From assembly GCA_030390025.1 (NCBI GenBank), contig JASTWF010000330.1, positions 496,001 through 537,009 on the forward strand: DNA of 41,009 bases, in the 5' to 3' direction. The DNA is from Squalus acanthias (Eukaryota). The notes beneath the pieces were generated by a model. It was not told the origin of the DNA. It ran no database searches and worked only from the letters and a program-made list of their open reading frames with translations. The position numbers and the translations under genes are program-made. Shown in pieces: positions 1 through 41,009 of this stretch (positions within the stretch are counted from its first letter, which is position 1; each line of letters opens with the position of its first letter).

Positions 1-51
1 AGTCACATTAGGTGAACATTCTGTACAAAATGGACCGAACGAGACAGATAC

Positions 52-147
52 CTGAGACTGCAGACCCCACTGGGATAGTGAATGAACGGTCAGTGGATTC
101 TCGAGTCGACTGTTCCTCGGGTTCCTGTGCTGTGAGTGTTTCCTGAT
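52..147 (-). CDS. Repeat exon, type A: DQETLTAQEPEEQSTRESTDRSFTIPVGSAVS
   Basis: Minus strand ...ctttattacag|ATCAGG...TCTCAG|gtatct; 96 nt. Confidence 0.72.
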
Positions 148-3100
148 CTGTAATAAAGGAAGAGAGACAGGGGAGAGTGTAGAGTGGAGAAACCAGAACA
201 GGTCATCAGGCTGGTACTGGAGCCAATCACAATCCCACTCACTCACTGCGTCCGACTGCACTCAGTCTCCTCATCCCACTGCCCTAGTCTCCTCATTCCA
301 TTCCACAAAATATTCTCATCCCATTCCCCACAGTCTACTCATCCCACTCCCATCAGTCTCATCATCTCACTCCCCACAGTCACATCATCCCACTCCCCTC
401 GATCTCCTCATCCCACTCCCCTCAGTCTCGTCATCCCACTCTCCTCAGTCTCCTCATCCCACTCCCCTCGGTCTCCTCATCCCACTCCCCTGAGTCTCCT
501 CATTCCATTCCCCTCAGCCTCCTGCTCCCACTCCCCTCAGTCTCCTCATCCCACTCCCCTCAGTCTCCTCATCCCGCTCCCCTCAGTCACAACACCCACT
601 CATTCAGTAAGAGACTGGATGAGCTTTTCAGGAGTCACATTGGGTGAACAGACTGAACACAATGGACCGAACGAGACAGATACCTGAGACTGCAGACCCC
701 ACTGGGATACTGGATGAACGGTCAGTGGATTCTCGAGTCGACTGTTCCTCGGGTTCCTGTGCTGTGAGTGTTTCCGGATCTGTAATAAATGAAGAACGAC
801 AGGGGAGAGTGTAGAGTGGAGAAAACCAGAACAGGTCATCAGGCTGGAACTGGAGCCAATCACAATCCCACTCACTCACTGCGTCCGAATACCTGCAGTG
901 TCTTCATCCAGCTCCCCTTAGATTCCTCATACCATTCCACAAAATATTCTCATCCCATTCCCCACAGTCTCCTCATTCCACTCACCTCAGTCTCCTCATC
1001 ACATTCCCCTCTGTCTCTACATCCAACTCCCCTCAGTCTCCTCATCCCACTCCCCTCAGTCTCCTCATTCCATTCACCTCAGTCTCCTACTCCCACACCC
1101 CTCAGTCTCCACATCCCACTCCCCACAGTCACTTCATCCCACTCCCCTCTGTCTCCTCATCCCACTCCCCTCAATCTCCTCATTCCATTCCCTTCAGCCT
1201 CCTACTCCCACTCCCCTCAGTCTCCACATCCCACTCCCCTCAGTCTCCACATCCCACTCCCTTCAGTCTCCTCATCCCACTCCACACAGTCTCCTCAACC
1301 CACTACCCTCAGTCACAACAACCACTCACTCAGTAAGAGACTGAATGAGCTTTTCAGGAGTCACATTGGGTGAACAGACTGTACACAATGTACCGAACAA
1401 GACAGATACCTGAGACTGCAGACCCCACTGGGATGGTGAATGAACGGTCAGTGGATTCTCGAGTCGACTGTTCCTCGGGTTCCTTTGTTTTGGATATGGC
1501 CGGATCTGTAATAAAGGAAGAGAGACATGGGAGAGTGCAGAGTGGAGAAAACCAGAACAGGTCATCAGGCTGGTACTGGAGCCAATCATAATCCCACTCA
1601 CTCACTGCGTCCGACTCCCTTCAGTCTCATCATCCCACCCCCCTCAGCCTCCTCATCCAGCTCCCCAAAGTCCCCTCATCCAGCTCCCCTCAGTCTCCTC
1701 ATCCCATTACCCTCAGTCACCTCACCCCACTCCCCCCATCTCCTCATTCCACTCCCCTCAGTCTCCTCATCCCACTCCCCTCAGTCTCAACATCCCTCTC
1801 CCCTCCGTCTACTCATCCCATTCCCTTCAGTCTCGTCATCCACACTCCCTTCAGTCTCCTCATTCCACACCCCTCAGTCTCCTCATCCCACACCCTTGAG
1901 TCTCCTGTTCCCACTCCCCTCAGTATCCTCATCCCACTTCCCTCAATATCCACATGCCACTCCCCTCAGTCTCCTCATCCCGCTGCCCTCAGTCACGAAA
2001 TCCAATCACTCAGTAAGAGACTGGATGACCTTTTCAGGAGTCACATTAGGTGAACATTCTGTACAAAATGGACCGAACGAGACAGATACCTGAGACTGCA
2101 GACCCCACTGGGATAGTGAATGAACGGTCAGTGGATTCTCGAGTCGACTGTTCCTCGGGTTCCTGTGCTGTGAGTGTTTCCTGATCTGTAATAAAGGAAG
2201 AGAGACAGGGGAGAGTGTAGAGTGGAGAAACCAGAACAGGTCATCAGGCTGGTACTGGAGCCAATCACAATCCCACTCACTCACTGCGTCCGACTGCACT
2301 CAGTCTCCTCATCCCACTGCCCTAGTCTCCTCATTCCATTCCACAAAATATTCTCATCCCATTCCCCACAGTCTACTCATCCCACTCCCATCAGTCTCAT
2401 CATCTCACTCCCCACAGTCTCATCATCCCACTCCCCTCGATCTCCTCATCCCACTCCCCTCAGTCTCGTCATCCCACTCTCCTCAGTCTCCTCATCCCAC
2501 TCCCCTCGGTCTCCTCATCCCACTCCCCTGAGTCTCCTCATTCCATTCCCCTCAGCCTCCTGCTCCCACTCCCCTCAGTCTCCTCATCCCACTCCCCTCA
2601 GTCTCCTCATCCCGCTCCCCTCAGTCACAACACCCACTCATTCAGTAAGAGACTGGATGAGCTTTTCAGGAGTCACATTGGGTGAACAGACTGAACACAA
2701 TGGACCGAACGAGACAGATACCTGAGACTGCAGACCCCACTGGGATACTGGATGAACGGTCAGTGGATTCTCGAGTCGACTGTTCCTCGGGTTCCTGTGC
2801 TGTGAGTGTTTCCGGATCTGTAATAAATGAAGAACGACAGGGGAGAGTGTAGAGTGGAGAAAACCAGAACAGGTCATCAGGCTGGAACTGGAGCCAATCA
2901 CAATCCCACTCGCTCACTGCGTCCGAATACCTGCAGTGTCTTCATCCAGCTCCCCTTAGATTCCTCATACCATTCCACAAAATATTCTCATCCCATTCCC
3001 CACAGTCTCCTCATTCCACTCACCTCAGTCTCCTCATCACATTCCCCTCTGTCTCTACATCCAACTCCCCTCAGTCTCCTCATCCCACTCCCCTCAGTCT

Positions 3101-6100
3101 CCTCATCCAGCTCCCCTCAGTCTCCTCATACCACTCCACACAGTCTCATCATCCCACTCCGCTCCGTCTCCTCATCCCACTCCCCTCAGTCTGATCATTC
3201 CATTCCCCTCAGCCTCCTACACCCAATCCCCTCAGTCTCCAAATCCCAATCCCCTCAGTCTCCACATCCCACTCCCCTCAGTTTGCTCATCCCACTCCCC
3301 ACAGTCTCCTCATCCCACTCCCCTCAGTCTCCTCATCCCACTACCCTCAGTCACAACACCCACTCACTCATAAGAGACTGGATGAGCTTTTCAGGAGTCA
3401 CATCGGTTGAACAGACTGTACACAACGGACCGAACGAGACAGATACCTAAGACTGCAGACCCCACTGGGACAGTGGATGAACGGTCAGTGGATACTCGAG
3501 TCGACTGTTCCTCGGGTTCCTGTGTTTTGGATATGTCCGGATCTGTAATAAAGGAAGAGAGACATGGGAGAGTGTAGAGTGGAGAAAACCAGAACAGGTC
3601 ATCAGGCTGGTACTGGAGCCAATCATAATCCCACTCATTAACTGCGCCCGACTCCCTTCAGTCTCATCATCCCACTCCCCTAGTCTCCTCATACCATTCC
3701 ACAAAATATCCTCATCCCATTCCCCACAGTCTCCACATTCCACTCAACTGTGTCTCCTCATCCCACTCCCCTTAGTCTCCTCATCCCACTCCCCTCTGTC
3801 TCCTCATCCCACTCCCCTCTGTCTAATCATCCAGTTCCCCTCAGTCTCCTCATATCACTCCCTTCAGTCTCCTCATCACACTCCCCTCAGTCTCCTCATA
3901 ACACTCCCCACAGTCACCTCATCCGACTCCCCTCAGTCTCCTCATCCCACTCCACACAGTCTCCTCATGCCACTCCCCTTAGTCTCCTCATCACACTCCC
4001 CTTAGTCTCCTCATCACGCTCCCCTCAGTCTCCTCCTCCCACTCCCATCATTCTCATCATCCCACACCCCACAGTCACCTCATCCCACTCCCCTCGGTCT
4101 CCTCATCACACTCCCCTCAGTCTCCTCATTCCATTCCCCTCAGCCTCCTGATCCCACTCCCCTCAGTCTCCTCCTCCCACTCCCATCAGTCTCATCATCC
4201 CACACCCCACAGTCACCTCATCCCACTCCCCTCGTTCTCCTTATCACACTCCCCTCAGTCTCCTCATCCCACTCCCATCAGTCTCCTTATCCCACTCCCC
4301 TCACTCTCCACCTCCCACTCCACTCAGTCTCCTCATTCCATTCCCCTCAGTCTCCTCCTCCCACTCCCCTCAGTCTCCTCATCACACTCCCCTCAGTCTC
4401 CTCGTCACACTCCCCTCAGTCTCCACATAACCCTCCACACAGTCTCCTCTTCCCACTCCCCTCAGTCTCCTCATCCCACTCCCCTCAGTCTCCTCATTCA
4501 GCTCCCCTCAGTCTCCTCGTCCCACTCCTCTCAGTCTCCTCATCCCACTCCCCTCAGTCTCCACATCCCACTCCCCACAGTCTCCTCATCCCACTTCCCT
4601 CAGTCTCCTCATCCAGCTCCCCTCAGTCTCCTCTTCCCACTCCCCTCTGTCTCATCATTCCACTCCCCTCTGTCTCCTCATCCCACTCCGCTCAGTCTCC
4701 TCATTCAGCTCCCCTCAGTCACAACACCCATTCACTCAGTAAGGGACTGGATGATCTTTTCAGGAGTCACAATGGTTGAACAGACTGTACACAATGGACC
4801 GAACGAGACAGACACCTGAGGCTGCAGACCCCACTGGGATAGTGGATGAACGGTCAGTGGATTCTCGAGTCGACTGTTCCTCGGGTTCCTGTGTTTTGGA
4901 TATGTCCGGATCTGCAATTAAGGAAGAGAGACATGGGAGAGTGTAGAGTGGAGAAAACCAGAACAGGTCATCAGGCTGGTACTGGAGCCAATCAAAATTC
5001 CACTCACTCATTGCGCCCGACTCCCTTCAGTCTCATCATCCCACTCCCCTAGTCTCCTCATACAATTCCACAAAATATTCCCATCCCATTCCCCACAGTC
5101 TCCACATTCCACTCAACTGTGTCTCCTCATCCCACTCCCCTTAGTCTCCTCATCCCACTCCCCTCTGTCTCCTCATCCCACTCCCCTCAGTCTCCTCAAA
5201 CCACTCCCTTCAGTCTCCTCATCACACTCCCCTCAGTCTCCTCATAACACTCACCACAGTCACCTCATCCGACTCCCCTCAGTCTCCTCATCACACTCCA
5301 CACAGTCTCCTCATGCCACTCCCCTTAGTCTCCTCATCCCACTCCCCTCAGTATCCTCATTCCATTCCCCTCAGCCTCCTACTCCCACTCCCCTCAGTCT
5401 CCACATCCCACTCCCCTCAGTCTCCACATCCCACTCCCCTCAGTCTCCTCATCCCACTCCACACAGTCTCCTCATGCCACTCCCCTTAGTCTCCTCATCC
5501 CACTCCCCTCAGTCTCCTCATTCCATTCCCCTCAGCCTCCTACTCCCACTCCCCTCAGTCTCCACATCCCACTCCACTCAGTCTCCTCATCCCACTCCCC
5601 TCAGTCTCCTCATCCCGCTCCCCTCAGTCACAACACCCACTCATTCAGTAAGAGACTGGATGAGCTTTTCAGGAGTCACATTGGGTGAACAGACTGAACA
5701 CAATGGACCGAACGAGACAGATACCTGAGACTGCAGACCCCACTGGGATACTGGATGAACGGTCAGTGGATTCTCGAGTCGACTGTTCCTCGGGTTCCTG
5801 TGCTGTGAGTGTTTCCGGATCTGTAATAAATGAAGAACGACAGGGGAGAGTGTAGAGTGGAGAAAACCAGAACAGGTCATCAGGCTGGAACTGGAGGCAA
5901 TCACAATCCCACTCACTCACTGCGTCCGAATACCTGCAGTCTCTTCATCCAGCTCCCCTTAGATTCCTCATACCATTCCACAAAATATTCTCATCCCATT
6001 CCCCACAGTCTCCTCATTCCACTCACCTCAGTCTCCTCATCCCATTCCCCTCTGTCTCTACATCCAGCTCCCCTCAGTCTCCTCATCCCACTCCCCTCAG

Positions 6101-9100
6101 TCTCCTCATCCAGCTCCCCTCAGTCTCCTCATACCACTCCACACAGTCTCATCATCCCACTCCCCACAGTCACCTCATCCCACTCCGCTCCGTCTCCTCA
6201 TCCCACTCCCCTCAGTCTGATCATTCCATTCCCCTCAGCCTCCTACTCCCAATCCCCTCAGTCTCCAAATCCCACTCCCCTCAGTCTCCACATCCCACTC
6301 CCCTCAGTTTGCTCATCCCACTACCCTCAGTCACAACACCCACTCACTCATAAGAGACAGGATAAGCTTTTCAGGAGTCACATCGGTTGAACAGACTGTA
6401 CACAACGGATCGAACGAGACAGATACCTAAGACTGCAGACCCCACTGGGACAGTGGATGAACGGTCAGTGGATACTCGAATCGACTGTTCCTCGGGTTCC
6501 TGTGTTTTGGATATGTCCGGATCTGTAATAAAGGAAGAGAGACATGGGAGAGTGTAGAGTGGAGAAAACCAGAACAGGTCATCAGGCTGGTACTGGAGCC
6601 AATCATAATCCCACTCACTCACTGCGCCCGACTCCCTTCAGTCTCATCATCCCACTCCCCTAGTCTCCTCATACCATTCCACAAAATATTCTCATCCCAT
6701 TCCCCACAGTCTCCACATTCCACTCAACTGTGTCTCCTCATCCCACTCCCCTTAGTCTCCTCATCCCACTCCCCTCTGTCTAATCATCCAGTTCCCCTCA
6801 GTCTCCTCATATCACTCCCTTCAGTCTCCTCATCACACTCCCCACAGTCACCTCATCCGACTCCCCTCAGTCTCCTCATCCCACTCCACACAGTCTCCTC
6901 ATGCCACTCCCCTTAGTCTCCTCATCACACTCCCCTTAGTCTCCTCATCACGCTCCCCTCAGTCTCCTCCTCCCACTCCCATCATTCTCATCAGCCCACA
7001 CCCCACAGTCACCTCATCCCACTCCCCTCGGTCTCCTCATCACACTCCCCTCAGTCTCCTCATTCCATTCCCCTCAGCCTCCTGATCCCACTCCCCTCAG
7101 TCTCCTCCTCCCACTCCCATCAGTCTCATCATCCCACACCCCACAGTCACCTCATCCCACTCCCCTCGTTCTCCTTATCACACTCCCCTCAGTCTCCTCA
7201 TCCCACTCCCATCAGTCTCCTTATCCCACTCCCCTCACTCTCCACCTCCCACTCCACTCAGTCTCCTCATGCCATTCCCCTCAGTCTCCTCCTCCCACTC
7301 CCCTCAGTCTCCTCATCACACTCCCCTCAGTCTCCTCGTCACACTCCCCTCAGTCTCCTCATAACCCTCCACACAGTCTCCTCTTCCCACTCCCCTCAGT
7401 CTCCTCATCCCACTCCCCTCAGTCTCCTCATTCAGCTCCCCTCAGTCTCCTCGTCCCACTCCCCTCAGTCTCCTCATCCCACTCCCCTCAGTCTCCACAT
7501 CCCACTCCCCACAGTCTCCTCATCCCACTTCCCTCAGTCTCCTCATCCAGCTCCCCTCAGTCTCCTCTTCCCACTCCCCTCTGTCTCATCATTCCACTCC
7601 CCTCTGTCTCCTCATCCCACTCCGCTCAGTCTCCTCATTCAGCTCCCCTCAGTCACAACACCCATTCACTCAGTAAGGGACTGGATGATCTTTTCAGGAG
7701 TCACAATGGTGGAACAGACTGTACACAATGGACCGAACGAGACAGACACCTGAGGCTGCAGACCCCACTGGGATAGTGGATGAACGGTCAGTGGATTCTC
7801 GAGTCGACTGTTCCTCGGGTTCCTGTGTTTTGGATATGTCCGGATCTGCAATTAAGGAAGAGAGACATGGGAGAGTGTAGAGTGGAGAAAACCAGAACAG
7901 GTCATCAGGCTGGTAATGGAGCCAATCAAAATCCCACTCACTCATTCCGCCCGACTCCCTTCAGTCTCATCATCCCACTCCCCTAGTCTCCTCATACAAT
8001 TCCACAAAATATTCCCATCCCATTCCCCACAGTCTCCACATTCCACTCAACTGGGTCTCATCATCCTACTCCCCTTAGTCTCCTCATCCCACTCCCCTCT
8101 GTCTCCTCATCCCACTCCCCTCAGTCTCCTCAAACCACTCCCTTCAGTCTCCTCATCACACTCCCCTCAGTCTCCTCATAACACTCCCCACAGTCACCTC
8201 ATCCGACTCCCCTCAGTCTCCTCATCCCACTCCACACAGTCTCCTCATGCCACTCCCCTTAGTCTCCTCATCCCACTCCCCTCTGTCTCCTCATCCCACT
8301 CCCCTCAGTCTCCTCATACCACTCCCTTCAGTCTCCTCATCCGTCTCCCCTCAGTCTCCTCTTCCCACTCCCCTCAGTCTCCTCCTCCCACTCCCATCAG
8401 TCTCCTCATAACACTCCCCACAGTCACCTCATCCCACTCCCCTCAGTCTCCTCATCACACTCCCCTCAGTCTCCTCATCCCACTCCCCTCAGTCTCCTCA
8501 TCCCACTCCACTCAGCCTCCTCATCCCACTCCCCTCAGTTCCCTCATCCCACTCCCCTCAGTCTCCTGATTCAGCTCCCCTCAGTCTCCTCATCCCACGC
8601 CCCTCAGTCTCCCCATCCCACTCCCCTCAGTCTCCTCATCCCACTCCCCTCTGTCTCCTCATCACACTCCCCTCAGTCTCCTCATCCCACTCCCCTCAGT
8701 CTCCTCATTCCACTCCCCTCAGTCCCCTCATCCCACTCCCCTCAGTCTTCTCATCCCACTCCCCTCAGTCTCCACATCCCACTCCACACAGTCTCCTCAT
8801 TCCACTCCCCTCAGTCTCCACATGCCACTCCACACAGTCTCCTCATCCCACTCCCCTCAGTCTCCACATCCCACTCCCCTCAGTCTCCTCATCGCACTCC
8901 CCTCAGTCTATTCATCCCACTCCCCTCTGTCTCTTCATTCCACTCCACACAGTCTCCTCATCCCACTCCCCACATTCTCCTCATCCCTATAGCCACAGTC
9001 TCCTCATCCCAATCCCCTCAGTTTCCTCAGCCCACTCCCCTTTTTCTCCTCTTCCCACTCCCCTCAAGCTACTCATCCCACTCTCCTCATCACACTCCCC

Positions 9101-10009
9101 ACAATCACCTCCTCCCACTCCCCTCAGTCTCCTCGTCCCACTCCCCTCAGTACCACATCCCACTCCCCACAGTCTCCACATCCCACTCCCCACAGTCTCC
9201 TCATCCCACTTCCCTCAGTCTCCTCATCCAGCTCCCCTCAGTCTCCTCTTCCCACTCCCCTCTGTCTCCTCTTCCCACTCCCCTCTGTCTCCTCATCCCA
9301 CTCCCCTCAGTCTCCTCATTCCACTCCCCTCAGTCCCCTCATTCCACTCCCCTCAGTCTACTCATCCCACTCCCCTCAGTCTCCACATCCCACTCCACAC
9401 AGTCTCCTCATCCCACTCCCCTCTGTCTCCTCATTCCACTCCCCTCAGTCCCCTCATTCCACTCCCCTCAGTCTTCTCATCCCACTCCCCTCAGTCTCCA
9501 CATCCCACTCCACACAGTCTCCTCATCCCACTCCCCTCTGTCTCCTCATCCCACTCCCCTCAGTCTCCTCATTCAGCTCCCCTCAGTCTCCTCATTCAGC
9601 TCCCCTCAGTCTCCTCGTCCCATTCCCCTCAGTCTCCTCCTCCCACTCCCCTCAGTCTCCTCATCACACTCCCCTCAGTCTCCTCCTCCCACACCCCTCA
9701 GTCTCATCATCACACTCCCCACACTTTCCTCATCCCACTTCCCACAGTCTCCTAATCCCACTCCACTCAGTCTCCACATCCCACTCCCCTCAGTCTCCTC
9801 ATCCCTCTACCCTCAGTCACAATACCCACTCACTCAGTAAGAGACTGGATGAGCTTTTCAGGAGGCACATTGTGTGAACAGACTGTACACAATGGACCGA
9901 ACGAGACAGATACCTGAGACTGCAGACCACACTGGGATAGTGGATGAACGGTCAGTGGATTCTCGAGTCGACTGATCCTCGGGTTCCTGTGTTGTGGATG
10001 TGTCCGGAT
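52..10009 (-). CDS. Partial spliced gene: 11 tandem 96-nt phase-1 exons encoding a 32-aa S/T/E/P-rich (mucin-like) repeat region; start and stop lie outside the window
   Basis: All 11 copies have a pyrimidine tract + CAG upstream and GT downstream on the minus strand, are exactly 96 nt with no indels, and have no stop in the phase-1 frame (junction codon G|AT = Asp). Phase 0 has TAG in two copies; phase 2 has TGA in all. The product class is inferred from composition only (about one third Ser/Thr, acidic, no Cys). Confidence 0.72.
684..779 (-). CDS. Repeat exon, type B: DPETLTAQEPEEQSTRESTDRSSSIPVGSAVS
   Basis: tttattacag|ATCCGG...TCTCAG|gtatct; 96 nt; in frame with ORF 628..879(-). Confidence 0.72.
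780..845 (-). promoter_or_regulatory. Representative 3' splice signal (candidate branch point, pyrimidine tract, CAG); repeated in every cassette
   Basis: Minus strand cctgatgacctgttctggttttctccactctacactctcccctgtcgttcttcatttattacag: about 60 nt free of AG, pyrimidine-rich, with yTnAy-like CTGAT at its 5' end. Confidence 0.6.
1410..1505 (-). CDS. Repeat exon, type C: DPAISKTKEPEEQSTRESTDRSFTIPVGSAVS
   Basis: tttattacag|ATCCGG...TCTCAG|gtatct; 96 nt; in frame with ORF 1354..1605(-). Confidence 0.72.
2090..2185 (-). CDS. Repeat exon, type A: DQETLTAQEPEEQSTRESTDRSFTIPVGSAVS
   Basis: Same as 52..147 at offset 2038; AG/GT intact. Confidence 0.72.
2722..2817 (-). CDS. Repeat exon, type B: DPETLTAQEPEEQSTRESTDRSSSIPVGSAVS
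   Basis: Same as 684..779 at offset 2038; AG/GT intact. Confidence 0.72.
3447..3542 (-). CDS. Repeat exon, type D: DPDISKTQEPEEQSTRVSTDRSSTVPVGSAVL
   Basis: tttattacag|ATCCGG...TCTTAG|gtatct; the TTA G end is Leu in phase 1 but a stop in phase 0. Confidence 0.7.
   Translation of the reverse strand: MRTYPKHRNPRNSRLEYPLTVHPLSQWGLQS
4816..4911 (-). CDS. Repeat exon, type E: DPDISKTQEPEEQSTRESTDRSSTIPVGSAAS
   Basis: ttaattgcag|ATCCGG...CCTCAG|gtgtct; flanks diverge from other types but AG and GT are kept. Confidence 0.7.
5725..5820 (-). CDS. Repeat exon, type B: DPETLTAQEPEEQSTRESTDRSSSIPVGSAVS
   Basis: tttattacag|...|gtatct; 96 nt; in frame with ORF 5669..5920(-). Confidence 0.72.
6427..6522 (-). 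CDS. Repeat exon, type D variant: DPDISKTQEPEEQSIRVSTDRSSTVPVGSAVL
   Basis: tttattacag|...TCTTAG|gtatct; 96 nt; in frame with ORF 6371..6622(-). Confidence 0.7.
   Translation of the reverse strand: MRTYPKHRNPRNSRFEYPLTVHPLSQWGLQS
7750..7845 (-). CDS. Repeat exon, type E: DPDISKTQEPEEQSTRESTDRSSTIPVGSAAS
   Basis: ttaattgcag|...CCTCAG|gtgtct; 96 nt; in frame with ORF 7694..7945(-). Confidence 0.7.
9914..10009 (-). CDS. Repeat exon, type F (first in transcript order): DPDTSTTQEPEDQSTRESTDRSSTIPVWSAVS
   Basis: tttattacag|ATCCGG...TCTCAG|gtatct; 96 nt; in frame with ORF 9858..10109(-). Confidence 0.72.
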
Positions 10010-10114
10010 CTGTAATAAAGGAAGAGAGACATGGGACAGTGTAGAGTGGAGAAAACCAGAACAGGTCATCAGGCTGGTACTGGAGCCGATCACAATCCCA
10101 CTCACTCACTGTGT

Positions 10115-13100
10115 CCCACTCCTCTCACTTACTGTGTCCCACTCCCATCAGGAACTGTGTCCCACCCCCATCAGGAACAGCGTCTAACTCTCCTCAGGAA
10201 CCGCCTCCCACTCCCCTCAGGAACCGTGTCCCACTCACCTCAGGAACCGTGTCCCACTCCCCTCAGGAACTGTGTCCCACTCCCCTCAGGAACTGTGTCC
10301 CAATCCCCTCAGGAACTGTGTTCCACTCCCCTCAGGATCTGTGTCCCACTCCCCACAGGTACTGTGTCCCACTCCCCTCAGGAACTGTGTCCCACTCCCC
10401 TCAGGAACTGCATCCCAATCCCCTCAGGAACTGTGTCCACTCCCCTCAGGAACTGTGTCCACTCCCCTCAGGAACTGTGTCCCTCTCCCCTCAGGAACTG
10501 TGTCCCACTTCCCTCAGGAACTGTGTCCCACTCCCCTCAGGAGCTGCGTCCTACTCCCCTCAGGAACTGTGTCCACTCCCCTCAGGAACTGTGTCACACT
10601 CCCCTCAGGAACTGTGTCCCTCACCCCTCAGGAACTGTGTCCACTCCCCTCAGGAACTGTGTCCCTCTCGCCTCAGGAACTGTGTCCCTCTCCCCTCAGG
10701 AACTGTGTCCACTCCCCTCAGGAACTGTGTCCCACTCCCCTCAGTAACTGCGTCCCACTCCCCTCAGGAACTGTGTCCCTCTCCCCTCAGGAACTGTGTC
10801 CCACTTCCCTCAGGAACTGTGTCCTCTCCCCTCAGGAACTGTGTCCCCCTCCCCTCAGGAACTGTGTCCCACTCCCCTCAGGAACTGTGTCCCACTCCCC
10901 TCAGGAACTGTGTCCTCTCCCCTCAGGAACTGTGTCCCACTCCCCTCAGGAACTGTGTCCACTCCCCTCAGGAACTGTGTCCACTCCCCACAGGAACTGT
11001 GTCCCTCTCCCCTCAGGAACTGTGTCCCACTCCCCTCAGTAACTGCGTCCCACTCCCCTCAGGAACTGTGTCCACTCCACTCAGGAACTGTGTCCCACTC
11101 CCCTCAGGAACTGTGTCCCCCTCCCCTCAGGAACTGTGTCTCACTCCCCACAGGAACTGTGTCCCACTCCCCGCAGGAACTGTGTCCCACTCCCCACAGG
11201 AACTGTGTCCCACTCCCCACAGGAACTGTGTCCCACTCCCCACAGGAACTGTGTCCCACTCCCCACAGGAACTGTGTCCCACTCCCCACAGGAACTGTGT
11301 CCCACTCCCCACAGGAAAAGTGTCCCACTCCCCACAGGAACTGTGTCCCACTCTCCACAGGAACTGTGTCCCACACCCCTCAGGAACTGTGTCCACTCCC
11401 CTCAGGAACTGTGTCCCTCTCCCCTCAGGAACTGTGTCCCATTCCCCTCAGGAACTGTGTCCCACTCCCCTCAGGAACTGTGTCCCACTCCCCTCAGGAA
11501 CTGTGTCCCACTCCCCTCAGGAACTGTGCCCCACTCCCATCAGGAACTGCGTCCAACTCTCCTCAGGAACCGCTTCCAACTCCCCTCAGGAACCGGGTCC
11601 CACTCCCCTCAGGAACTGTGTCCCAATCCCCTCAGGAACTGTGTCCCACTCCCCTCAGGATTTGTGTCCCACTCCCCACAGGAACTGTGTCCCATTCCCC
11701 TCAGGAACTGTGTCCCAATCCCCTCAGGAAATGTGTCCCACTCCCCTCAGGATCTGTGTCCCACTCCCCACAGGTACTGTGTCCCACTCCCCTCAGGAAC
11801 TGTGTCCCACTCCCCTCAGAAACTGCATCCCAATCCCCTCAGGAACTGTGTCCACTCCCCTCAGGAACTGTGTCCACTCCCCTCAGGAACTGTGTCCCAC
11901 TCCCCTCAGGATCTGTGTCCCACTCCCCACAGGTACTGTGTCCCACTCCCCTCAGGAACTGTGTCCCACTCACCACAGGAACTGTGTCCCACTCCCCTCA
12001 GGAACTGTGTCCCACTCCCCTCAGAAACTGCATCCCAATCCCCTCAGGAACTGTGTCCACTCCCCTCAGGAACTGTGTCCACTCCCCTCAGGAACTGTGT
12101 CCCACTCCCCTCAGGATTTGTGTCCCACTCCCCACAGGAACTGTGTCCCACTCCCCTCAGGAACTGTGTCCCACTCCCTCAGGAACTGCGTCCCAATCCC
12201 CTCAGGAACTGTGTCCACTCCCCTCAGGAACTGGGTGCCACTCCCCTCAGGAACTGCGTCCCACTCCCCTAAGGAACTGTGTCCACTCCCCTCAGGAACT
12301 GTGTCCCACTCCCCTAAGGAACTGTGTCCACTCCCCTCAGGAACTGTGTCCCACTCCCCTCAGGAACTGTGTCCCTCTCCCCTCAGGAACTGTGTCCACT
12401 CCCCTCAGGAACTGTGTCCCACTCCCCTCAGGAGCTGAGTCCTCTCCCCTCAGGAACTGTGTCCCACTCCCCTCAGGAACTGTGTCCACTCCCCTCAGGA
12501 ACTGTGTCCCACTCCCCTCAGGAACTGTGTCCCTCTCCCCTCAGGAACTGTGTCCCACTCCCCTCAGGAACTGTGTCCCTCTCCCCTCAGGAACTGTGTT
12601 CCACTCCCCTCAGGAACTGTGTCCCTCTCCCCTCAGGAACCGTGTCCCACTCCCCTCAGGAACTGTGTCCCTCTCCCCTCAGGAACCGTGTCCCACTCCC
12701 CTCAGGAACTGTGTCCACTCCCCTCAGGAACTGTGTCCACTCCCCTCAGGAACTGTGTCCCTCTCCCCTCAGGAACTGTTTCCCACTCCCCTCAGGAAAT
12801 GTGTCCGACTCCCCTCAGGAACTGTGTCCCACTCCCCTCAGGAACTGTGTCCCACTCCCCTCAGGAACTGTGCCCCACTCCCATCAGGAACTGCGTCCAA
12901 CTCTCCTCAGGAACCGCCTCCCACTCCCCTCAGGAACCGGGTCCCACTCCCCTCAGGAACTGTGTCCCAATCCCCTCAGGAACTGTGTCCCACTCCCCTC
13001 AGGATCTGTGTCCCACTCCCCACAGGAACTGTGTCCCACTCCCCTCAGGAACTGTGTCCCACTCCCTCAGGAACTGCGTCCCACTCCCCTCAGGAACTGT

Positions 13101-16100
13101 GTCCACTCCCCTCAGGAACTGTGTCCCACTCCCTCAGGAACTGTGTCCCACTCCCTCAGGAACTGTGTCCCACTCCCCACAGGAACTGTGTCCCACTCCC
13201 TCAGGAACTGTGTCCCACTCCCCTCAGGAGCTGCGTCCCACTCCCCTCAGGAACTGTGTCCACTCCCCTCAGGAACTGTGTCACACTCCCCTCAGGAACT
13301 GTGTCCCTCACCCCTCAGGAACTGTGTCCACTCCCCTCAGGAACTGTGTCCCTCTCGCCTCAGGAACTGTGTCCCTCTCCCCTCAGGAACTGTGTCCACT
13401 CCCCTCAGGAACTGTGTCCCACTCCCCTCAGTAACTGCGTCCCACTCCCCTCAGGAACTGTGTCCCTCTCCCCTCAGGAACTGTGTCCCACTTCCCTCAG
13501 GAACTGTGTCCTCTCCCCTCAGGAACTGTGTCCCCCTCCCCTCAGGAACTGTGTCCCACTCCCCTCAGGAACTGTGTCCCACTCCCCTCAGGAACTGTGT
13601 CCTCTCCCCTCAGGAACTGTGTCCCACTCCCCTCAGGAACTGTGTCCACTCCCCTCAGGAACTGTGTCCACTCCCCACAGGAACTGTGTCCCTCTCCCCT
13701 CAGGAACTGTGTCCCACTCCCCTCAGTAACTGCGTCCCACTCCCCTCAGGAACTGTGTCCACTCCACTCAGGAACTGTGTCCCACTCCCCTCAGGAACTG
13801 TGTCCCCCTCCCCTCAGGAACTGTGTCTCACTCCCCACAGGAACTGTGTCCCACTCCCCGCAGGAACTGTGTCCCACTCCCCACAGGAACTGTGTCCCAC
13901 TCCCCACAGGAACTGTGTCCCACTCCCCACAGGAACTGTGTCCCACTCCCCACAGGAACTGTGTGCCACTCCCCACAGGAACAGTGTCCCACTCCCCACA
14001 GGAACTGTGTCCCACTCTCCACAGGAACTGTGTCCCACACCCCTCAGGAACTGTGTCCACTCCCCTCAGGAACTGTGTCCCTCTCCCCTCAGGAACTGTG
14101 TCCCATTCCCCTCAGGAACTGTGTCCCACTCCCCTCAGGAACTGTGTCCCACTCCCCTCAGGAACTGTGTCCCACTCCCCTCAGGAACTGTGCCCCACTC
14201 CCATCAGGAACTGCGTCCAACTCTCCTCAGGAACCGCTTCCAACTCCCCTCAGGAACCGGGTCCCACTCCCCTCAGGAACTGTGTCCCAATCCCCTCAGG
14301 AACTGTGTCCCACTCCCCTCAGGATTTGTGTCCCACTCCCCACAGGAACTGTGTCCCATTCCCCTCAGGAACTGTGTCCCAATCCCCTCAGGAAATGTGT
14401 CCCACTCCCCTCAGGATCTGTGTCCCACTCCCCACAGGTACTGTGTCCCACTCCCCTCAGGAACTGTGTCCCACTCCCCTCAGAAACTGCATCCCAATCC
14501 CCTCAGGAACTGTGTCCACTCCCCTCAGGAACTGTGTCCACTCCCCTCAGGAACTGTGTCCCACTCCCCTCAGGAACTGTGTCCCACTCCCCTCAGAAAC
14601 TGCATCCCAATCCCCTCAGGAACTGTGTCCACTCCCCTCAGGAACTGTGTCCCACTCACCACAGGAACTGTGTCCCACTCCCCTCAGGAACTGTGTCCCA
14701 CTCCCCTCAGAAACTGCATCCCAATCCCCTCAGGAACTGTGTCCACTCCCCTCAGGAACTGTGTCCACTCCCCTCAGGAACTGTGTCCCACTCCCCTCAG
14801 GAACTGTGTCCCACTCCCCTCAGGAACTGTGTCCCACTCCCCTCAGAAACTGCATCCCAATCCCCTCAGGAACTGTGTCCACTCCCCTCAGGAACTGTGT
14901 CCCACTCACCACAGGAACTGTGTCCCACTCCCCTCAGGAACTGTGTCCCACTCCCCTCAGAAACTGCATCCCAATCCCCTCAGGAACTGTGTCCACTCCC
15001 CTCAGGAACTGTGTCCACTCCCCTCAGGAACTGTGTCCCACTCCCCTCAGGATTTGTGTCCCACTCCCCACAGGAACTGTGTCCCACTCCCCTCAGGAAC
15101 TGTGTCCCACTCCCTCAGGAACTGCGTCCCAATCCCCTCAGGAACTGTGTCCACTCCCCTCAGGAACTGGGTGCCACTCCCCTCAGGAACTGCGTCCCAC
15201 TCCCCTAAGGAACTGTGTCCACTCCCCTCAGGAACTGTGTCCCACTCCCCTAAGGAACTGTGTCCACTCCCCTCAGGAACTGTGTCCCACTCCCCTCAGG
15301 AACTGTGTCCCTCTCCCCTCAGGAACTGTGTCCACTCCCCTCAGGAACTGTGTCCCACTCCCCTCAGGAGCTGAGTCCTCTCCCCTCAGGAACTGTGTCC
15401 CACTCCCCTCAGGAACTGTGTCCACTCCCCTCAGGAACTGTGTCCCACTCCCCTCAGGAACTGTGTCCCTCTCCCCTCAGGAACTGTGTCCCACTCCCCT
15501 CAGGAACTGTGTCCCTCTCCCCTCAGGAACTGTGTTCCACTCCCCTCAGGAACTGTGTCCCTCTCCCCTCAGGAACCGTGTCCCACTCCCCTCAGGAACT
15601 GTGTCCCTCTCCCCTCAGGAACCGTGTCCCACTCCCCTCAGGAACTGTGTCCACTCCCCTCAGGAACTGTGTCCACTCCCCTCAGGAACTGTGTCCCTCT
15701 CCCCTCAGGAACTGTTTCCCACTCCCCTCAGGAAATGTGTCCGACTCCCCTCAGGAACTGTGTCCCACTCCCCTCAGGAACTGTGTCCCACTCCCCTCAG
15801 GAACTGTGCCCCACTCCCATCAGGAACTGCGTCCAACTCTCCTCAGGAACCGCCTCCCACTCCCCTCAGGAACCGGGTCCCACTCCCCTCAGGAACTGTG
15901 TCCCAATCCCCTCAGGAACTGTGTCCCACTCCCCTCAGGATCTGTGTCCCACTCCCCACAGGAACTGTGTCCCACTCCCCTCAGGAACTGTGTCCCACTC
16001 CCTCAGGAACTGCGTCCCACTCCCCTCAGGAACTGTGTCCACTCCCCTCAGGAACTGTGTCCCACTCCCTCAGGAACTGTGTCCCACTCCCTCAGGAACT

Positions 16101-19100
16101 GTGTCCCACTCCCCACAGGAACTGTGTCCCACTCCCTCAGGAACTGTGTCCCACTCCCCTCAGGAACTGCGTCCCAATCCCCTCAGGAACTGTGTCCACT
16201 CCCCTCAGGAACTGGGTGCCACTCCCCTCAGGAACTGCGTCCCACTCCCCTAAGGAACTGTGTCCACTCCCCTCAGGAACTGTGTCCCACTCCCCTCAGG
16301 AACTGTGTCCCTCTCCCCTCAGGAACTGTGTCCCACTCCCCTCAGGAGCTGAGTCCTCTCCCCTCAGGAACTGTGTCCCACTCCCCTCAGGAGCTGAGTC
16401 CTCTCCCCTCAGGAACTGTGTCACACTCCCCTCAGGAACTGTGTCCCACTCCCCTCAGGAACTGTGTCCACTCCCCTCAGGAACTGTGTCCCACTCCCCT
16501 CAGGAACTGTGTCCCTCTCCCCTCAGGAACTGTGTTCCACTCCCCTCAGGAACTGTGTCCCTCTCCCCTCAGGAAACGTGTCCCACTCCCCTCAGGAACT
16601 GTGTCCCTCTCCCCTCAGGAACCGTGTCCCACTCCCCTCAGGAACTGTGTCCACTCCCCTCAGGAACTGTGTCCACTCCCCTCAGGAACTGTGTCCCTCT
16701 CCCCTCAGGAACTGTTTCCCACTCCCCTCAGGAAATGTGTCCGACTCCCCTCAGGAACTGTGTCCCACTCCCCTCAGGAACTGTGTCACACTCCCCTCAG
16801 GAACTGTGCCCCACTCCCATCAGGAACTGCGTCCAACTCTCCTCAGGAACCGCCTCCCACTCCCCTCAGGAACCGGGTCCCACTCCCCTCAGGAACTGTG
16901 TCCCAATCCCCTCAGGACCTGTGTCCCACTCCCCTCAGGATCTGTGTCCCACTCCCCACAGGAACTGTGTCCCACTCCCCTCAGGAACTGTGTCCCACTC
17001 CCTCAGGAACTGCGTCCCAATCCCCTCAGGAACTGTGTCCACTCCCCTCAGGAACTGGGTGCCACTCCCCTCAGGAACTGCGTCCCACTCCCCTCAGGAA
17101 CTGTGTCCACTCCCCTCAGGAACTGTGTCCCACTCCCCTCAGGAACTGTGTCCCTCTCCCCTCAGGAGCTGAGTCCTCTCCCCTCAGGAACTGTGTCCCA
17201 CTCCCCTCAGGAACCGTGTCCCACTCCCCTCAGGAATTGTGTCCCTCTCCCCTCAGGAACCGTGTCCCACTCCCCTCAGGAACTGTGTCCACTCCCCTCA
17301 GGAACTGTGTCCACTCCCCTCAGGAACTGTGTCCCTCTCCCCTCAGGAACTGTTTCCCACTCCCCTCAGGAACTGTGTCCGACTCCCCTCAGGAACTGTG
17401 TCCCACTCCCCTCAGCAACTGTGTCCTCTCCCCTCAGGAACTGTGTCCCACTCCCCTCAGGAACTGTGTCCACTCCCCTCAGGAACTGTGTCCCACTCCC
17501 CTCAGGAACTGTGTCCCACTCCCCTCAGGAACTGCGTTCCACTCCCCTCAGGAACTGTGTCCACTCCCCTCAGGGACTGTGTCCCACTCACCTCAGGAAA
17601 TGTGTCCCACTCCCCTCAGGAACTGTTTCCCACTCCCCACAGGAACTGTGTCCCACTCCCCACAGGAACTGTGTCCCACTCCCCAAAGGAACTGTGTCCC
17701 ACTCCCCACAGGAACGGTGTCCCACTCCCCTCAGGAACTGTGTCCACTCCCCTCAGGAACTGTGTCCCTCTCCCCTCAGGAACTGTGTCCACTCCCCTCA
17801 GGAACTGCGTCCCACTCCCCTCAGGAACAGTGTCCCACTCCCCTCAGGAACTGTGTCCACTCCCCTCAGGAACTGTGTCCCACTCCCCTCAGGAACTGTG
17901 TCCCACTCCCCTCAGGAACTGTGTCCACTCCCCTCAGGAACTGTGTCCCTCTCCCCTCAGGAACAGTGTCCCACTCCCCTCAGGAACTGTGTCCACTCCC
18001 CTCAGGAACTGTGTCCCACTCCCCTCAGGAACTGTGTCCACTCCCCTCAGGAACTGTGTCCACTCCCCTCAGGAACTGTATCCCTCTCCCCTCAGGAACT
18101 GTATCCCACTCCCCTCAGGAACTGTGTCCCTCTCCCCTCAGGAACAGTGTCCCACTCCCCTCAGGAACTGTGTCCACTCCCCTCAGGAACTGTGTCCCAC
18201 TCCCCTCAGGAACTGTGTCCACTCCCCTCAGGAACTGTGTCCCACTCCCCTCAGGAACTGTGTCCACTCCCCTCAGGAACTGTGTCCACTCCCCTCAGGA
18301 ACTGTATCCCTCTCCCCTCAGGAACTGTGTCCCTCTCCTCTCCGGAACTGTGTCCACTCCCCTCAGGAACTGTGTCCCACTCCCCTCAGGAACTGTGTCT
18401 CACTCCCCTCAGGAACTGTGTCCCTCTCCCCTCAGGAACTGTGTCCCACTCCCCTCAGGAACTGTGTCCCACTCCCCTCAGGAACTGTGTCCCTCTCCCC
18501 TCCGGAACTGTGTCCACTCCCCTCAGGAACTGTGTCACACTCCCCTCAGGAACTGTGTCCCACTCCCCTCAGGAACTGTGTCCACTCCCCTAAGGAACTG
18601 TGTCCCACTCCCCTCAGGAACTGTGTCCCACTCCCCACAGAAACTGTAACCCTCTCCCCTCAGGAACTGTGTCCACTCCTCTCAAGAACTGTGTCCACTC
18701 CCCTCAGGAACTGTGTCCCACTCCCCTCAGGAACTGTGTCCACTCCCCTAAGGAACTGTGTCCCACTCCCCTCAGGAACTGTGTCCCACTCCCCACAGAA
18801 ACTGTAACCCTCTCCCCTCAGGAACTGTGTCCACTCCTCTCAAGAACTGTGTCCACTCCCCTCAGGAACTGTGTCCCACTCCCCTCAGGAACTGTGTCCA
18901 CTCCCCTCAGGAACTGTGTCCACTCCCCTCAGGAACTGTGTCCACTCCCCTCAGGAACTGTGTCCACTCCCCTCAGGAACTGTGTCCACTCCCCTCAGGA
19001 ACTGTGTCCACTCCCCTCAGGAACCGTGTCCACTCCCCTCAGGAACTGTGTCCCAATCCCCTCAGGAACTGTGTCCCACTCCCCTCAGGATCTGTGTCCC

Positions 19101-22100
19101 ACTCCCCTCAGGAACTGTGTCCCACTCCCTCAGGAACTGCGTCCCAATCCCCTCAGGAACTGTGTCCACTCCCCTCAGGAACTGGGTGCCACTCCCCTCA
19201 GGAACTGTGTCCCACTCCCCTCAGGAACTGTGTCCCACTCCCCACAGGAACTGTGTCCCACTCCCCTCAGGAACTGTGTCCCACTCCCTCAGGAACTGCG
19301 TCCCAATCCCCTCAGGAACTGTGTCCACTCCCCTCAGGAACTGGTGCCACTCCCCTCAGGAACTGCGTCCCACTCCCCTCAGGAACTGTGTCCACTCCCC
19401 TCAGGAACTGTGTCCCACTCCCCTCAGGAACTGTGTCCCTCTCCCCTCAGGAGGTGAGTCCTCTCCCCTCAGGAACTGTGTCCCACTCCCCTCAGGAACC
19501 GTGTCCCACTCCCCTCAGGAATTGTGTCCCTCTCACCTCAGGAACCGTGTCCCACTCCCCTCAGGAACTGTGTCCACTCCCCTCAGGAACTGTGTCCACT
19601 CCCCTCAGGAACTGTGTCCCTCTCCCCTCAGGAACTGTTTCCCACTCCCCTCAGGAACTGTGTCCGACTCCCCTCAGGAACTGTGTCCCACTCCCCTCAG
19701 GAACTGTGTCCTCTCCCCTCAGGAACTGTGTCCCACTCCCCTCAGGAACTGTGTCCACTCCCCTCAGGAACTGTGTCCCACTCCCCTCAGGAACTGTGTC
19801 CCACTCCCCTCAGGAACTGCGTTCCACTCCCCTCAGGAACTGTGTCCACTCCCCTCAGGAACTGTGTCCCACTCACCTCAGGAAATGTGTCCCACTCCCC
19901 TCAGGAACTGTTTCCCACTCCCCACAGGAACTGTGTCCCACTCCCCACAGGAACTGTGTCCCACTCCCCAAAGGAACTGTGTCCCACTCCCCACAGGAAC
20001 TGTTTCCCACTCCCCACAGGAACGGTGTCCCACTCCCCTCAGGAACTGTGTCCACTCCCCTCAGGAACTGTGTCCCTCTCCCCTCAGGAACTGTGTCCAC
20101 TCCCCTCAGGAACTGCATCCCACTCCCCTCAGGAACAGTGTCCCACTCCCCTCAGGAACTGTGTCCACTCCCCTCAGGAACTGTGTCCCACTCCCCTCAG
20201 GAACTGTATCCCTCTCCCCTCAGGAACTGTGTCCCTCTCCTCTCCGGAACTGTGTCCACTCCCCTCAGGAACTGTGTCCCACTCCCCTCAGGAACTGTGT
20301 CCCACTCCCCTCAGGAACTGTGTCCACTCCCCTAAGGAACTGTGTCCCACTCCCCTCAGGAACTGTGTCCCACTCCCCACAGAAACTGTAACCCTCTCCC
20401 CTCAGGAACTGTGTCCACTCCTCTCAAGAACTGTGTCCACTCCCCTCAGGAACTGTGTCCCACTCCCCTCAGGAACTGTGTGCACTCCCCTCAGGAACTG
20501 TGTCCACTCCCCTCAGGAACTGTGTCCACTCCCCTCAGGAACTGTGTCCACTCCCCTCAGGAACTGTGTCCACTCCCCTCAGGAACTGTGTCCACTCCCC
20601 TCAGGAACCGTGTCCACTCCCCTCAGGAACTGTGTCCCTCTCCCCTCAGGAACTGTGTCCACTCCCCTCAGGAACTGTGTCCCTCTACCCGCAGGAACTG
20701 TGTCCCTCTCCCCTCAGGAACTGTGTCCCTCTCCCCTGAGGAACTGTGTCCCACTCCCCTCAGGAACTGTGTCCACTCCCCTCAGGAACTGTGTCCACTC
20801 CCCTCAGGAACTGTGTCCCACTCCCCTCAGGAACTGTGTCCCTCTCCCCTCAGGAACTGTGTCCCACTCCCCTCAGGAACTCTGTCCCTCTCCCCTCAGG
20901 AACTGTGTTCCACTCCCCTCAGGAACTGTGTCCCTCTCCCCTCAGGAACCGTGTCCCACTCCCCTCAGGAACTGTGTCCCTCTCCCCTCAGGAACCGTGT
21001 CCCACTCCCCTCAGGAACTGTGTCCACTCCCCTCAGGAACTGAGTCCACTCCCCTCAGGAACTGTGTCCCTCTCCCCTCAGGAACTGTTTCCCACTCCCC
21101 TCAGGAACTGTGTCCGACTCCCCTCAGGAACTGTGTCCCACTCCCCTCAGGAACTGTGTCCTCTCCCCTCAGGAACTGTGTCCCACTCCCCTCAGGAACT
21201 GTGTCCACTCCCCTCAGGAACTGTGTCCCACTCCCCTCAGGAACTGTGTCCGACTCCCCTCAGGAACTGTGTCCCACTCCCCTCAGGAACTGTGTCCTCT
21301 CCCCTCAGGAACTGTGTCCCACTCCCCTCAGGAACTGTGTCCACTCCCCTCAGGAACTGTGTCCCACTCCCCTCAGGAACTGTGTCCCACTCCCCTCAGG
21401 AACTGCGTTCCACTCCCCACAGGAAATGTGTCCACTCCCCTCAGGAACTGTGTCCCACTCCCCTCAGGAACTGTGTCCCACTCCCCTCAGGAACTGCGTT
21501 CCACTCCCCTCAGGAAATGTGTCCACTCCCCTCAGGAACTGTGTCCCACTCACCTCAGGAAATGTGTCCCACTCCCCTCAGGAACTGTTTCCCACTCCCC
21601 ACAGGAACTGTGTCCCACTCCCCACAGGAACTGTGTCCCACTCCCCAAAGGAACTGTGTGCCACTCCCCACAGGAACTGTGTCCCACTCCCCACAGGAAC
21701 GGTGTCCCACTCCCCTCAGGAACTGTGTCCACTCCCCTCAGGAACTGTGTCGCTCTCCCCTCAGGAACTGTGTCCACTCCCCTCAGGAACTGCGTCCCAC
21801 TCCCCTCAGGAACAGTGTCCCACTCCCCTCAGGAACTGTGTCCACTCAACTCAGGAACTGTGTCCCACTCCCCTGAGGAACTGTATCCCTCTCCCCTCAG
21901 GAACTGTGTCCCTCTCCCCTCCGGAACTGTGTCCACTCCCCTCAGGAACTGTGTCCCACTCCCCTCAGGAACTGTGTCCCACTCACCTCAGGAAATGTGT
22001 CCCACTCCCCTCAGGAACTGTTTCCCACTCCCCACAGGAACTGTGTCCCACTCCCCACAGGAACTGTGTCCCACTCCCCAAAGGAACTGTGTCCCACTCC

Positions 22101-40100: not shown

Positions 40101-41009
40101 GTCCCACTCCCCTCAGGAACGTGTCCCACTCCCCGCAGGAACTGTGTCCACTCCCCTCAGGAACTGTGTCCCACTCCCCTCAGGAACTGTATCCCTCTCC
40201 CCTCAGGAACTGTGTCCACTCCTCTCCGGAACTGTGTCCACTCCCCTCAGGAACTGTGTCCCACTCCCCTCAGGAACTGTGTCCCACTCCCCTCAGGAAC
40301 TGTGTCCCTCTCCCCTCAGGAACTGTGTCCCACTCCCTCAGGAACTGTGTCCCACTCCCCTCAGGAACTGTGTCCCTCTCCCCTCCGGAACTGTGTCCAC
40401 TCCCCTCAGGAACTGTGTCACACTCCCCTCAGGAACTGTGTCCCACTCCCCTCAGGAACTGTGTCCACTCCCCTAAGGAACTGTGTCCCACTCCCCTCAG
40501 GAACTGTGTCCCACTCCCCACAGAAACTGTACCCTCTCCCCTCAGGAACTGTGTCCACTCCCCTCAAGAACTGTGTCCACTCCCCTCAGGAACTGTGTCC
40601 CACTCCCCTCAGGAACTGTGTCCACTCCCCTCAGGAACTGTGTCCACTCCCCTCAGGAACTGTGTCCACTCCCCTCAGGAACTGTGTCCACTCCCCTCAG
40701 GAACTGTGTCCACTCCCCTCAGGAACTGTGTCCACTCCCCTCAGGAACCTGTGTCCACTCCCCTCAGGAACTGTGTCCCTCTCCCCTCAGGAACTGTGTC
40801 CACTCCCCTCAGGAACTGTGTCCCTCTCCCGCAGGAACTGTGTCCCTCTCCCCTCAGGAACTGTGTCCCTCTCCCCTCAGGAACTGTGTCCCACTCCCCT
40901 CAGGAACTGTGTCCCACTCCCCTCAGGAACTGTGTCCCACTCCCCTCAGGAACTGTGTCCCACTCCCCTCAGGAACTGTGTCCCACTCCCCTCAGGAACT
41001 GTGTCCCTC
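10115..41009 (+). repeat. Satellite satB, 23-bp unit CCCACTCCCCTCAGGAACTGTGT with frequent 22-bp variant; ~31 kb, roughly 1,350 units, runs off the right edge
   Basis: Uninterrupted tandem repeat read directly from the sequence; no unique sequence or cassette copy was seen inside it. Copy number is estimated as length divided by ~22.7. Confidence 0.99.

Follow-up and report, generated by a model that had tools for sequence, protein, structure and literature searches.

How does one shark gene come to hold at least eleven copies of a single exon, and why do the introns between them begin with the same hybrid of two minisatellites? The question is raised by a stretch of 41,009 nucleotides from Squalus acanthias (assembly GCA_030390025.1, contig JASTWF010000330.1, positions 496,001 to 537,009 of the forward strand), analysed as a whole and referred to here as the window. 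Positions 1-10,096 contain 11 copies of a unique cassette of ~250 bp, with arrays of a 23-bp unit (satA) between the copies; from 10,097 to the window end there is one array of another 23-bp unit (satB), with ~1,360 copies and 92% matches. Each cassette carries a 96-nt minus-strand segment with AG..GT bounds, phase 1-1 and a length divisible by three, stop-free in 11 of 11, and the exon product is a 32-residue repeat rich in Ser, Thr, Pro and Glu, one exon per repeat. Since cassette 11 adjoins satB and the exons are on the minus strand, it is the first visible copy in transcript order and satB is its upstream intron. The internal introns are filled with satA.

The evidence lies where cassette and satellite meet. 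The relevant features are the following.

1593..1633, plus strand: example hybrid junction, made of an 11-base short core, a satB-like 7-mer (1604-1610), a core (1611-1624) and a satA tail (1625-1633).
Starts at 234, 867, 2272, 2905, 3630, 4999, 5908, 6610 and 7933, plus strand: equivalent hybrid junctions.
10097..10137, plus strand: terminal junction, with the seed found in the hybrids followed by a degenerate satB unit.
252-607, 885-1333, 1611-2013, 2290-2645 and 2923-3370, plus strand: the first five of ten satA arrays between cassettes (overall 252..9837).
3648-4739, 5017-5648, 5926-6350, 6628-7673 and 7951-9837, plus strand: the other five satA arrays.
10115..41009, plus strand: satB array, ~1,360 units with ~1 change per unit and neither satA tail nor non-satellite insert, running off the window.

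An earlier, sequence-only reading had described satA and satB as 23-mers with a common 14-base core and distinct tails, and this description holds: the units (for example, 550-572 and 10253-10275) agree at all 14 core bases and, in the tail, at 2 of 9 positions. All 11 right flanks consist of a motif, M, that ends in a short core of 11-12 bases, then a 7-mer, then a full core. The tail after the full core is satA-like in all ten internal introns (0-2 mismatches to A, 6-7 to B) and satB-like at cassette 11 (2 mismatches to B, 6 to A), which has the seed common to the other ten. The order reported from the letters alone, a satB-like tail, a core and then satA in ten cassettes, with the last continuing into satB, was thus recovered in ten of ten and in cassette 11. 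The span first assigned to it, 1590..10140, leaves three hybrids (at 245, at 878 and the array they start) to the left of 1590.

Compared with the last seven bases of the satB tail, the 7-mer shows no mismatch in cassette 11, one in six cassettes, two in two, and three and four in one each. Near-matches to the junction 7-mer, with at most one mismatch, are rare (4 of 7,024 7-mers in the satA arrays, 3 of 245 in the unique cassette), so the in-phase likeness goes beyond chance (~0.1-1%, taken as a single event). At the switch itself, degenerate cores are found, with 2-5 mismatches. Ten identical switches record one inherited event. Alignment of the 11 right flanks gives one switch in ten of ten, and in three of three satA-type contigs of a relative, organism D; this agrees with what had been predicted without discriminating among explanations, as any model of common descent predicts a single shared switch. 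The predicted location inside the core was likewise borne out, but it is no evidence for a crossover: where an A unit adjoins a B unit, the tail alone distinguishes them and a switch has to fall in the core or at the core edge, so that its position cannot choose among models. The junction is intronic, ~100 bases from the acceptor, and no sign of a functional role was seen there.

The account that we favour, and to which we give about an even chance, is that the hybrid introns are the product of one crossover between the two introns flanking an exon. The gene would already have held several diverged repeat exons, as relatives do. One of these would have had sister 23-bp minisatellites in its flanking introns, satB upstream, where it is still seen, and, we infer, satA downstream. 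The first full core of the satB intron would then have paired out of register with a core of the satA intron, and the exchange would have doubled the exon and created one hybrid intron, the switch falling between core positions 4 and 14. The ten visible internal introns descend from a single intron of this hybrid form, as the diagnostic units that they share show. Further growth came from ordinary unequal crossing-over between whole cassettes, two or three of them moving together and the breakpoints lying in satA (two such blocks are visible), probably with exchange also within the unique cassette, and satB afterwards expanded and homogenised alone to >31 kb.

Contigs from related organisms bear on several of these steps. 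Four of the 16 listed sequencing runs were compared with window positions 9815-10140, and 32 of 462 pieces were listed; the contigs are short and speak to presence only. In organism D, among the listed pieces, one contig runs from the seed into a core with a satB tail and three run into a core with a satA tail, with the same switch as in the window. The satB-type core of organism D has G at position 3, as have all ten satA junctions of the window, so shared ancestry reaches into the core. In organism B, the single listed contig over 10090-10137 (record 23, depth 39.4) shows 9 differences in 122 bases. Four of them lie left of the junction; the remaining five are too few for a satA unit, which needs at least 8, and enough for satB, which needs 4, and the junction is therefore satB-type. 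A donor-side contig of organism B (record 16, depth 50.5) carries the left copy of motif M, and no satA-type junction was found among the listed contigs of this organism, which show a satB-type junction and a left M only.

In organism E (run X11, RNA status guessed), cover is confined to the exon, and at least two contigs join 10009 to 9914, the predicted splice ends; head-to-tail splicing of the exons is thus seen in a relative. The deepest contig (record 9, 222 bases), read by eye, contains three different repeat exons in a row. The first is diverged and begins DPKTVPN (13 differences in 76 aligned bases), the second is window-like (5 differences in 96) and the third, of which only the start is present, is diverged and reads DTETPLTQ; splicing is at the predicted ends. 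This order indicates that a single exon of the window type is embedded in an older series of diverged ones. Five upstream bases in an organism E contig would suit either the C-T-D end of a D8C exon or an acceptor.

Proteins of other sharks give the same picture of an old array. Homologue searches gave 18 proteins, 14 of which were used; the partial near-duplicates P0001, P0004 and P0005 were left out, and P0010 was dropped as a spurious match. Each of the 14, drawn from Pristiophorus, Heptranchias, Heterodontus and Carcharodon, shows 2-5 repeats behind a D8C domain, although such searches favour multi-copy proteins and single-repeat genes may go unseen. These four genera together span both main shark lineages, and the multi-exon stalk is therefore old. 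The single ancestral exon of the sequence-only reading is thus contradicted both by these proteins and by the three consecutive repeat exons of the organism E contig; no more than one exon type can have been single before the event. What survives of the founding satB by satA crossover is the shared switch, the satB-type junction in organisms D and B, and the exon order of record 9; the single exon and a driving role for the satellites do not, and motif M is left unexplained.

Motif M is the element that the crossover accommodates least easily. Its copies and the unique flanks of the cassette are as follows.

10090..10108, plus strand: motif M (TCACAATCCCACTCACTCA), right copy, with equivalents at 227, 860, 1586, 2265, 2898, 3623, 4992, 5901, 6603 and 7926.
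9817..9836, plus strand: left copy of motif M, which differs from the right copy by 1 edit; all ten satA arrays end in an equivalent (1-4 edits).
9838..9913, unstranded: unique donor-side intron flank of the cassette (cassette 11 shown; all copies have an equivalent).
10010..10089, unstranded: unique acceptor-side intron flank; paralogues in organisms A and B match to ~10077-10087 and then continue in non-satellite sequence.

Every satA array is bracketed by this motif of 19-20 bp, which opens the array as the right edge of one cassette and closes it as the left edge of the following one. Measured against the right-hand M of cassette 11, nine of ten array ends lie within 3 edits (1, 2, 2, 3, 3, 3, 3, 3, 3 and 4). 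Units within 3 edits of M number 2 of 293 in the satA interior and 0 of 1,343 in satB (p ~0.01, taken as one event). M on both sides would be a coincidence had the hybrid drawn its two halves from unrelated introns. It would be natural if both flanking introns were old paralogues with one ancestral satellite between two Ms, and equally natural if the satellite was born in an internal intron. The presence of M at both array ends therefore means that the crossover model needs an older shared origin of both introns. Two other roles for M were considered. The two M copies as the crossover site of the first duplication were rejected, as this predicts a single M joining the flanks, with neither 7-mer nor satA, an arrangement that the window does not show. 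That M arose as a target-site duplication when a cassette was inserted is not favoured, the cassette carrying unspliced intron flanks of its own gene.

M and the satellites begin where homology with paralogous cassettes of organisms A and B stops. These paralogues, represented in organism A by two rows of 17 and 6 contigs, match the acceptor flank as far as ~10077-10087 and then enter non-satellite sequence. In runs X1 and X5, many paralogues share the exon and the acceptor flank, with other, non-satellite intron sequence on both sides (breaks at 9907 and 10077-10087). Summed depth in organism A is >10x higher at the acceptor than at window-type flanks, which hints at a very large family. Depth in this organism falls from 1,509 at 10101-10111 to 113 at 10123-10133 (7%, near 1 in 11); depth is no copy number, and the figure is not used as support. 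One cassette of organism D (run X7 record 24, compared with 9815-10116) is without 9907-10044 and thus appears as an exon-less relic between satA arrays, both splice sites lost.

Several observations weigh against the crossover. M directly precedes the 7-mer, its tail resembles the last satA unit, and it also closes each satA array. A complete satB unit is present in none of the ten hybrids: the satB-like tail first reported there comes down to 7 of the 9 tail bases, placed after a truncated core. At least two low-depth contigs of organism E have a window-like exon preceded by a window-like exon end, and the window-type exon may therefore not be single in this organism. The lack of satA junctions in organism B, which would suit a founding event, hints at it only weakly, since the array could later have collapsed to one exon with an identical outcome. 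That satA extends beyond the leftmost copy is inferred, the left end of the array lying outside the window. Finally, the satB array as it now stands postdates the radiation of the cassettes: its exact duplications reach 1,287 bp, whereas cassette types differ by 4-10%.

The strongest competitor is satellite turnover, which we consider a lesser but serious possibility. A 23-bp minisatellite would have been born between two Ms in an array that already had at least two window-type exons, and the intron would have spread by unequal exchange. The edges (M, 7-mer and first core) would be relics; the interiors would have diverged, into satA in the internal introns and into satB, derived from the edge 7-mer and core, in the first intron, so that the junction would be an edge of homogenisation. 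Direct repeats around minisatellites are a described birth pattern, according to the accessible part of PMC3389668, which cites Haber and Louis 1998, and the placement of M, bracketing every satA array and absent inside satA or satB, has this geometry. Unlike the repeats of 5-10 bp in that pattern, M has 19-20 bp and is a near-whole degenerate unit, which may be a relic terminal unit. The seed, moreover, has an A-like tail beside a B-like tail, and the first satB units are the most divergent (6, 4, 1, 4 and 6 changes, against ~1 further in). Turnover is also at ease with multi-exon arrays that are old and clustered by genus, and predicts one shared switch equally well. It does not readily explain why satB shares the 23-bp period and the 14-base core with satA when the seed unit has 18 bp, for which a common 23-bp ancestor or recombination is needed. 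The satB-type junction common to organisms B and D argues that it is no late local product, and the absence of a satA-type junction among the listed contigs of organism B, like the single window-like exon in the deepest contig of organism E, speaks for the crossover. A crossover scar, evenly balanced in our judgement, and turnover, a lesser prospect, both fit the present evidence.

It is rather unlikely that the junction records instead the contraction of a compound intron. Such an intron would have had a satB block next to the acceptor flank and then satA; a core-to-core deletion would have left one B tail, while the first intron expanded its B block, and the junction would be a deletion scar that dates no exon duplication. 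A deletion of this kind gives a sequence identical to that of a crossover, and the depth of the satB-type contig of organism B (39.4) is near that of the donor-side contig (50.5), both above the 2-15 of other listed contigs. If such depths meant many copies, most organism B cassettes would start with satB; contig depth, however, is no copy number. Against the compound intron, no satA tail was found among the ~1,360 satB units, whose far end lies outside the window, and no satB unit was found inside the satA arrays, bar one 8-base look-alike common to three arrays. This look-alike of the satB tail lies out of phase, within the core of one satA variant unit (3739-3761, 5108-5130 and 6719-6741; at 3744, 5113 and 6724).

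Very improbable, and already largely refuted by the contigs of relatives, is an origin by chance or artefact, in which the 7-mer would be ordinary cassette sequence resembling a satB tail or the array a repeat mis-assembly: a satB-like 8-mer did arise once inside satA and blocks up to 99.8% identical could leave the exact copy number mis-assembled, but the in-phase match has a chance of ~0.1-1%, both junction types are present in an independent organism and an exon-exon joint in another, and the six cassette types differ by 4-10%.

The later growth of the array can be followed in the window. Cassettes 5-7 were duplicated as 8-10 (blocks 2564-5349 and 5567-8283, 99.0% identical over 2,694 aligned bases). 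The head of satA array 7 is 98.0% identical to that of array 10, against 85.5% to array 4, and its tail is 98.8% identical to that of array 4, against 93.9% to array 10. Cassettes 1-2 equal cassettes 4-5 (blocks 1-1068 and 2039-3106, 99.8% identical).

5350..5566, unstranded: breakpoint interval of the three-cassette block duplication, inside satA array 7.
1046..1068, unstranded: point where the match between 1-1068 and 2039-3106 stops, at a perfect satA unit of arrays 2 and 5.

Both mapped block ends (2 of 2) are inside satA, which therefore hosts crossovers; satA makes up 72% of positions 1-10096, so that two of two would be expected half the time. Eight pairs of sites that involve exon position 9943 fail the four-gamete test, which suggests exchange in the unique cassette or one recurrent change. 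The earlier notion of a minisatellite-driven duplication is not established by these data, because breakpoints in satA are no commoner than its target share and the unique cassette shows incompatible sites too.

The satA arrays total 314 unit rows, 146 of them distinct. An A-rich satA variant (the third unit; 297-319 and equivalents) marks nine of ten arrays; the one without it is array 3, in which individual units have diverged more than in any other satA array. The satB array contains exact internal duplications of 578-1,287 bp, and its degenerate edge block (10138-10230) recurs five times between 11,506 and 16,785, at a spacing of ~1.0-1.6 kb, as a higher-order repeat near the array start. 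Units of 22 bases, without one C, are common in satB (287 of 1,363). The satB array homogenised by itself after the cassettes had spread.

The eleven repeat exons, all on the minus strand, are as follows.

52..147, minus strand: repeat exon of cassette 1, 96 nt, AG..GT, phase 1-1, open.
684..779, minus strand: repeat exon of cassette 2.
1410..1505, minus strand: repeat exon of cassette 3.
2090..2185, minus strand: repeat exon of cassette 4, identical to that of cassette 1.
2722..2817, minus strand: repeat exon of cassette 5.
3447..3542, minus strand: repeat exon of cassette 6.
4816..4911, minus strand: repeat exon of cassette 7.
5725..5820, minus strand: repeat exon of cassette 8.
6427..6522, minus strand: repeat exon of cassette 9.
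7750..7845, minus strand: repeat exon of cassette 10.
9914..10009, minus strand: repeat exon of cassette 11, earliest visible copy in transcript order; both ends coincide with the splice joint in the contig of a relative.

The cassettes fall into six types that differ by 4-10%, and copies within a type differ by 0-0.9%. Among the 11 exons (52-147 to 9914-10009), which are without stops or indels, 19 distinct changes were counted, 18 amino-acid-altering and one silent. The expected silent share is 28-31%, against the 1 of 19 seen (P = 0.009-0.017; pN 0.105 and pS 0.016 for the six types). Six of the 19 changes are clustered in codons 2-6 and may be derived from conversion, and for this reason the excess is taken only as a hint of diversifying selection. 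At position 9929 (codon 27), cassette 11 alone encodes Trp, the other ten copies Gly.

The exon peptide matches a sawshark protein at 74% identity, and the longer member of the cluster of that protein has a D8C domain (PF23283) directly before the repeats. Exons and homology together establish the cassettes as exons of a shark gene for a secreted D8C-domain (GP2/uromodulin-like) protein with a stalk of 32-residue repeats; the D8C exon of this gene would lie outside the window. The same 32-residue repeat is found in the models P0002, P0003, P0011 and P0016 of Pristiophorus, P0008, P0012 and P0017 of Heptranchias, P0006, P0009, P0013 and P0014 of Heterodontus and P0018 of Carcharodon. These RefSeq/UniRef models are automatic, with names such as 'uncharacterized', 'GP2-like', 'uromodulin-like' and 'mucin-like'. 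In them, the repeat directly follows a D8C ending in YCT-D; the comparison was made on proteins. Mean repeat identity to the window copies is 0.61 in Pristiophorus, 0.53 in Heptranchias, 0.54 in Heterodontus and 0.42 in Carcharodon, and the 11 copies of the window exceed the 2-5 of the annotated models. No long protein (607-2,000 aa) with many repeats was found among 6,695 candidates, which is weak evidence.

In a tree of 32 columns, built from 50 extracted fragments with five that are out of register or not true repeats left in, the repeats cluster by genus (7 label changes against 30.6 when shuffled; 0 of 200 shuffles). Support for the group of window copies is only 68/82, and the Heterodontus repeats cluster partly by position. 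At the level of sequence, clustering by genus is as expected under concerted evolution, as treated in the part of PMC5100051 consulted.

The product is probably a longer O-glycosylated stalk under a decoy-like D8C head, by analogy with the systems covered in the available portions of PMC8930769 and PMC11415648. The human GP2/uromodulin decoy module combines a beta-hairpin with D10C/D8C (PMC8930769, in part), and the shark homologues carry the PF23283 D8C. Unlike GP2/uromodulin, the window has no D8C exon and P0002 no ZP domain by Pfam; a decoy role is suggested by analogy. In the two proteins scanned for a ZP module, Pfam detected none, P0002 giving D8C only and P0001 nothing. Among teleosts, the omcins (PMC11415648) are another family that has expanded locally, changes fast and is linked with defence against bacteria.

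That unequal crossing-over between repeats can duplicate symmetric exons is textbook knowledge, and this locus is a tidy example. For protein repeats, PMC5100051 describes how symmetric exons duplicate in tandem and evolve in concert through unequal crossing-over. With those arrays the window shares phase 1-1 exons of one repeat each, repeats that are closer within a gene or genus, block duplications with hybrid junctions, and a disordered, probably host-defence protein. It differs from what that text describes in having introns that are almost wholly minisatellite and a difference between first and internal introns that leaves a readable boundary. Earthworm metallothioneins also combine intronic minisatellites with exon duplications, with no breakpoint link between them in the part of PMC12783039 available. 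In the open-access literature, we found no paper on exon arrays of the shark D8C family or on a two-satellite hybrid intron; subscription journals are mostly outside this coverage.

It is possible, though we think it doubtful, that one crossover between sister minisatellites made one exon of a shark immune-decoy stalk the founder of dozens of copies, with the breakpoint readable to ~11 bases in every descendant intron and across species, and the copies diversifying mainly at amino-acid-changing sites. Later exchange usually wipes out the breakpoint at which an exon array was founded; if the crossover model in its amended form is true, this locus keeps one. If the single-founder reading is true, it would be a datable natural case in which the invasion of introns by satellites raised exon copy number by an order of magnitude over satellite-free paralogues. 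The shark D8C family, with cassettes that have and cassettes that lack satellite-filled introns, would allow testing whether intronic minisatellites raise exon copy number.

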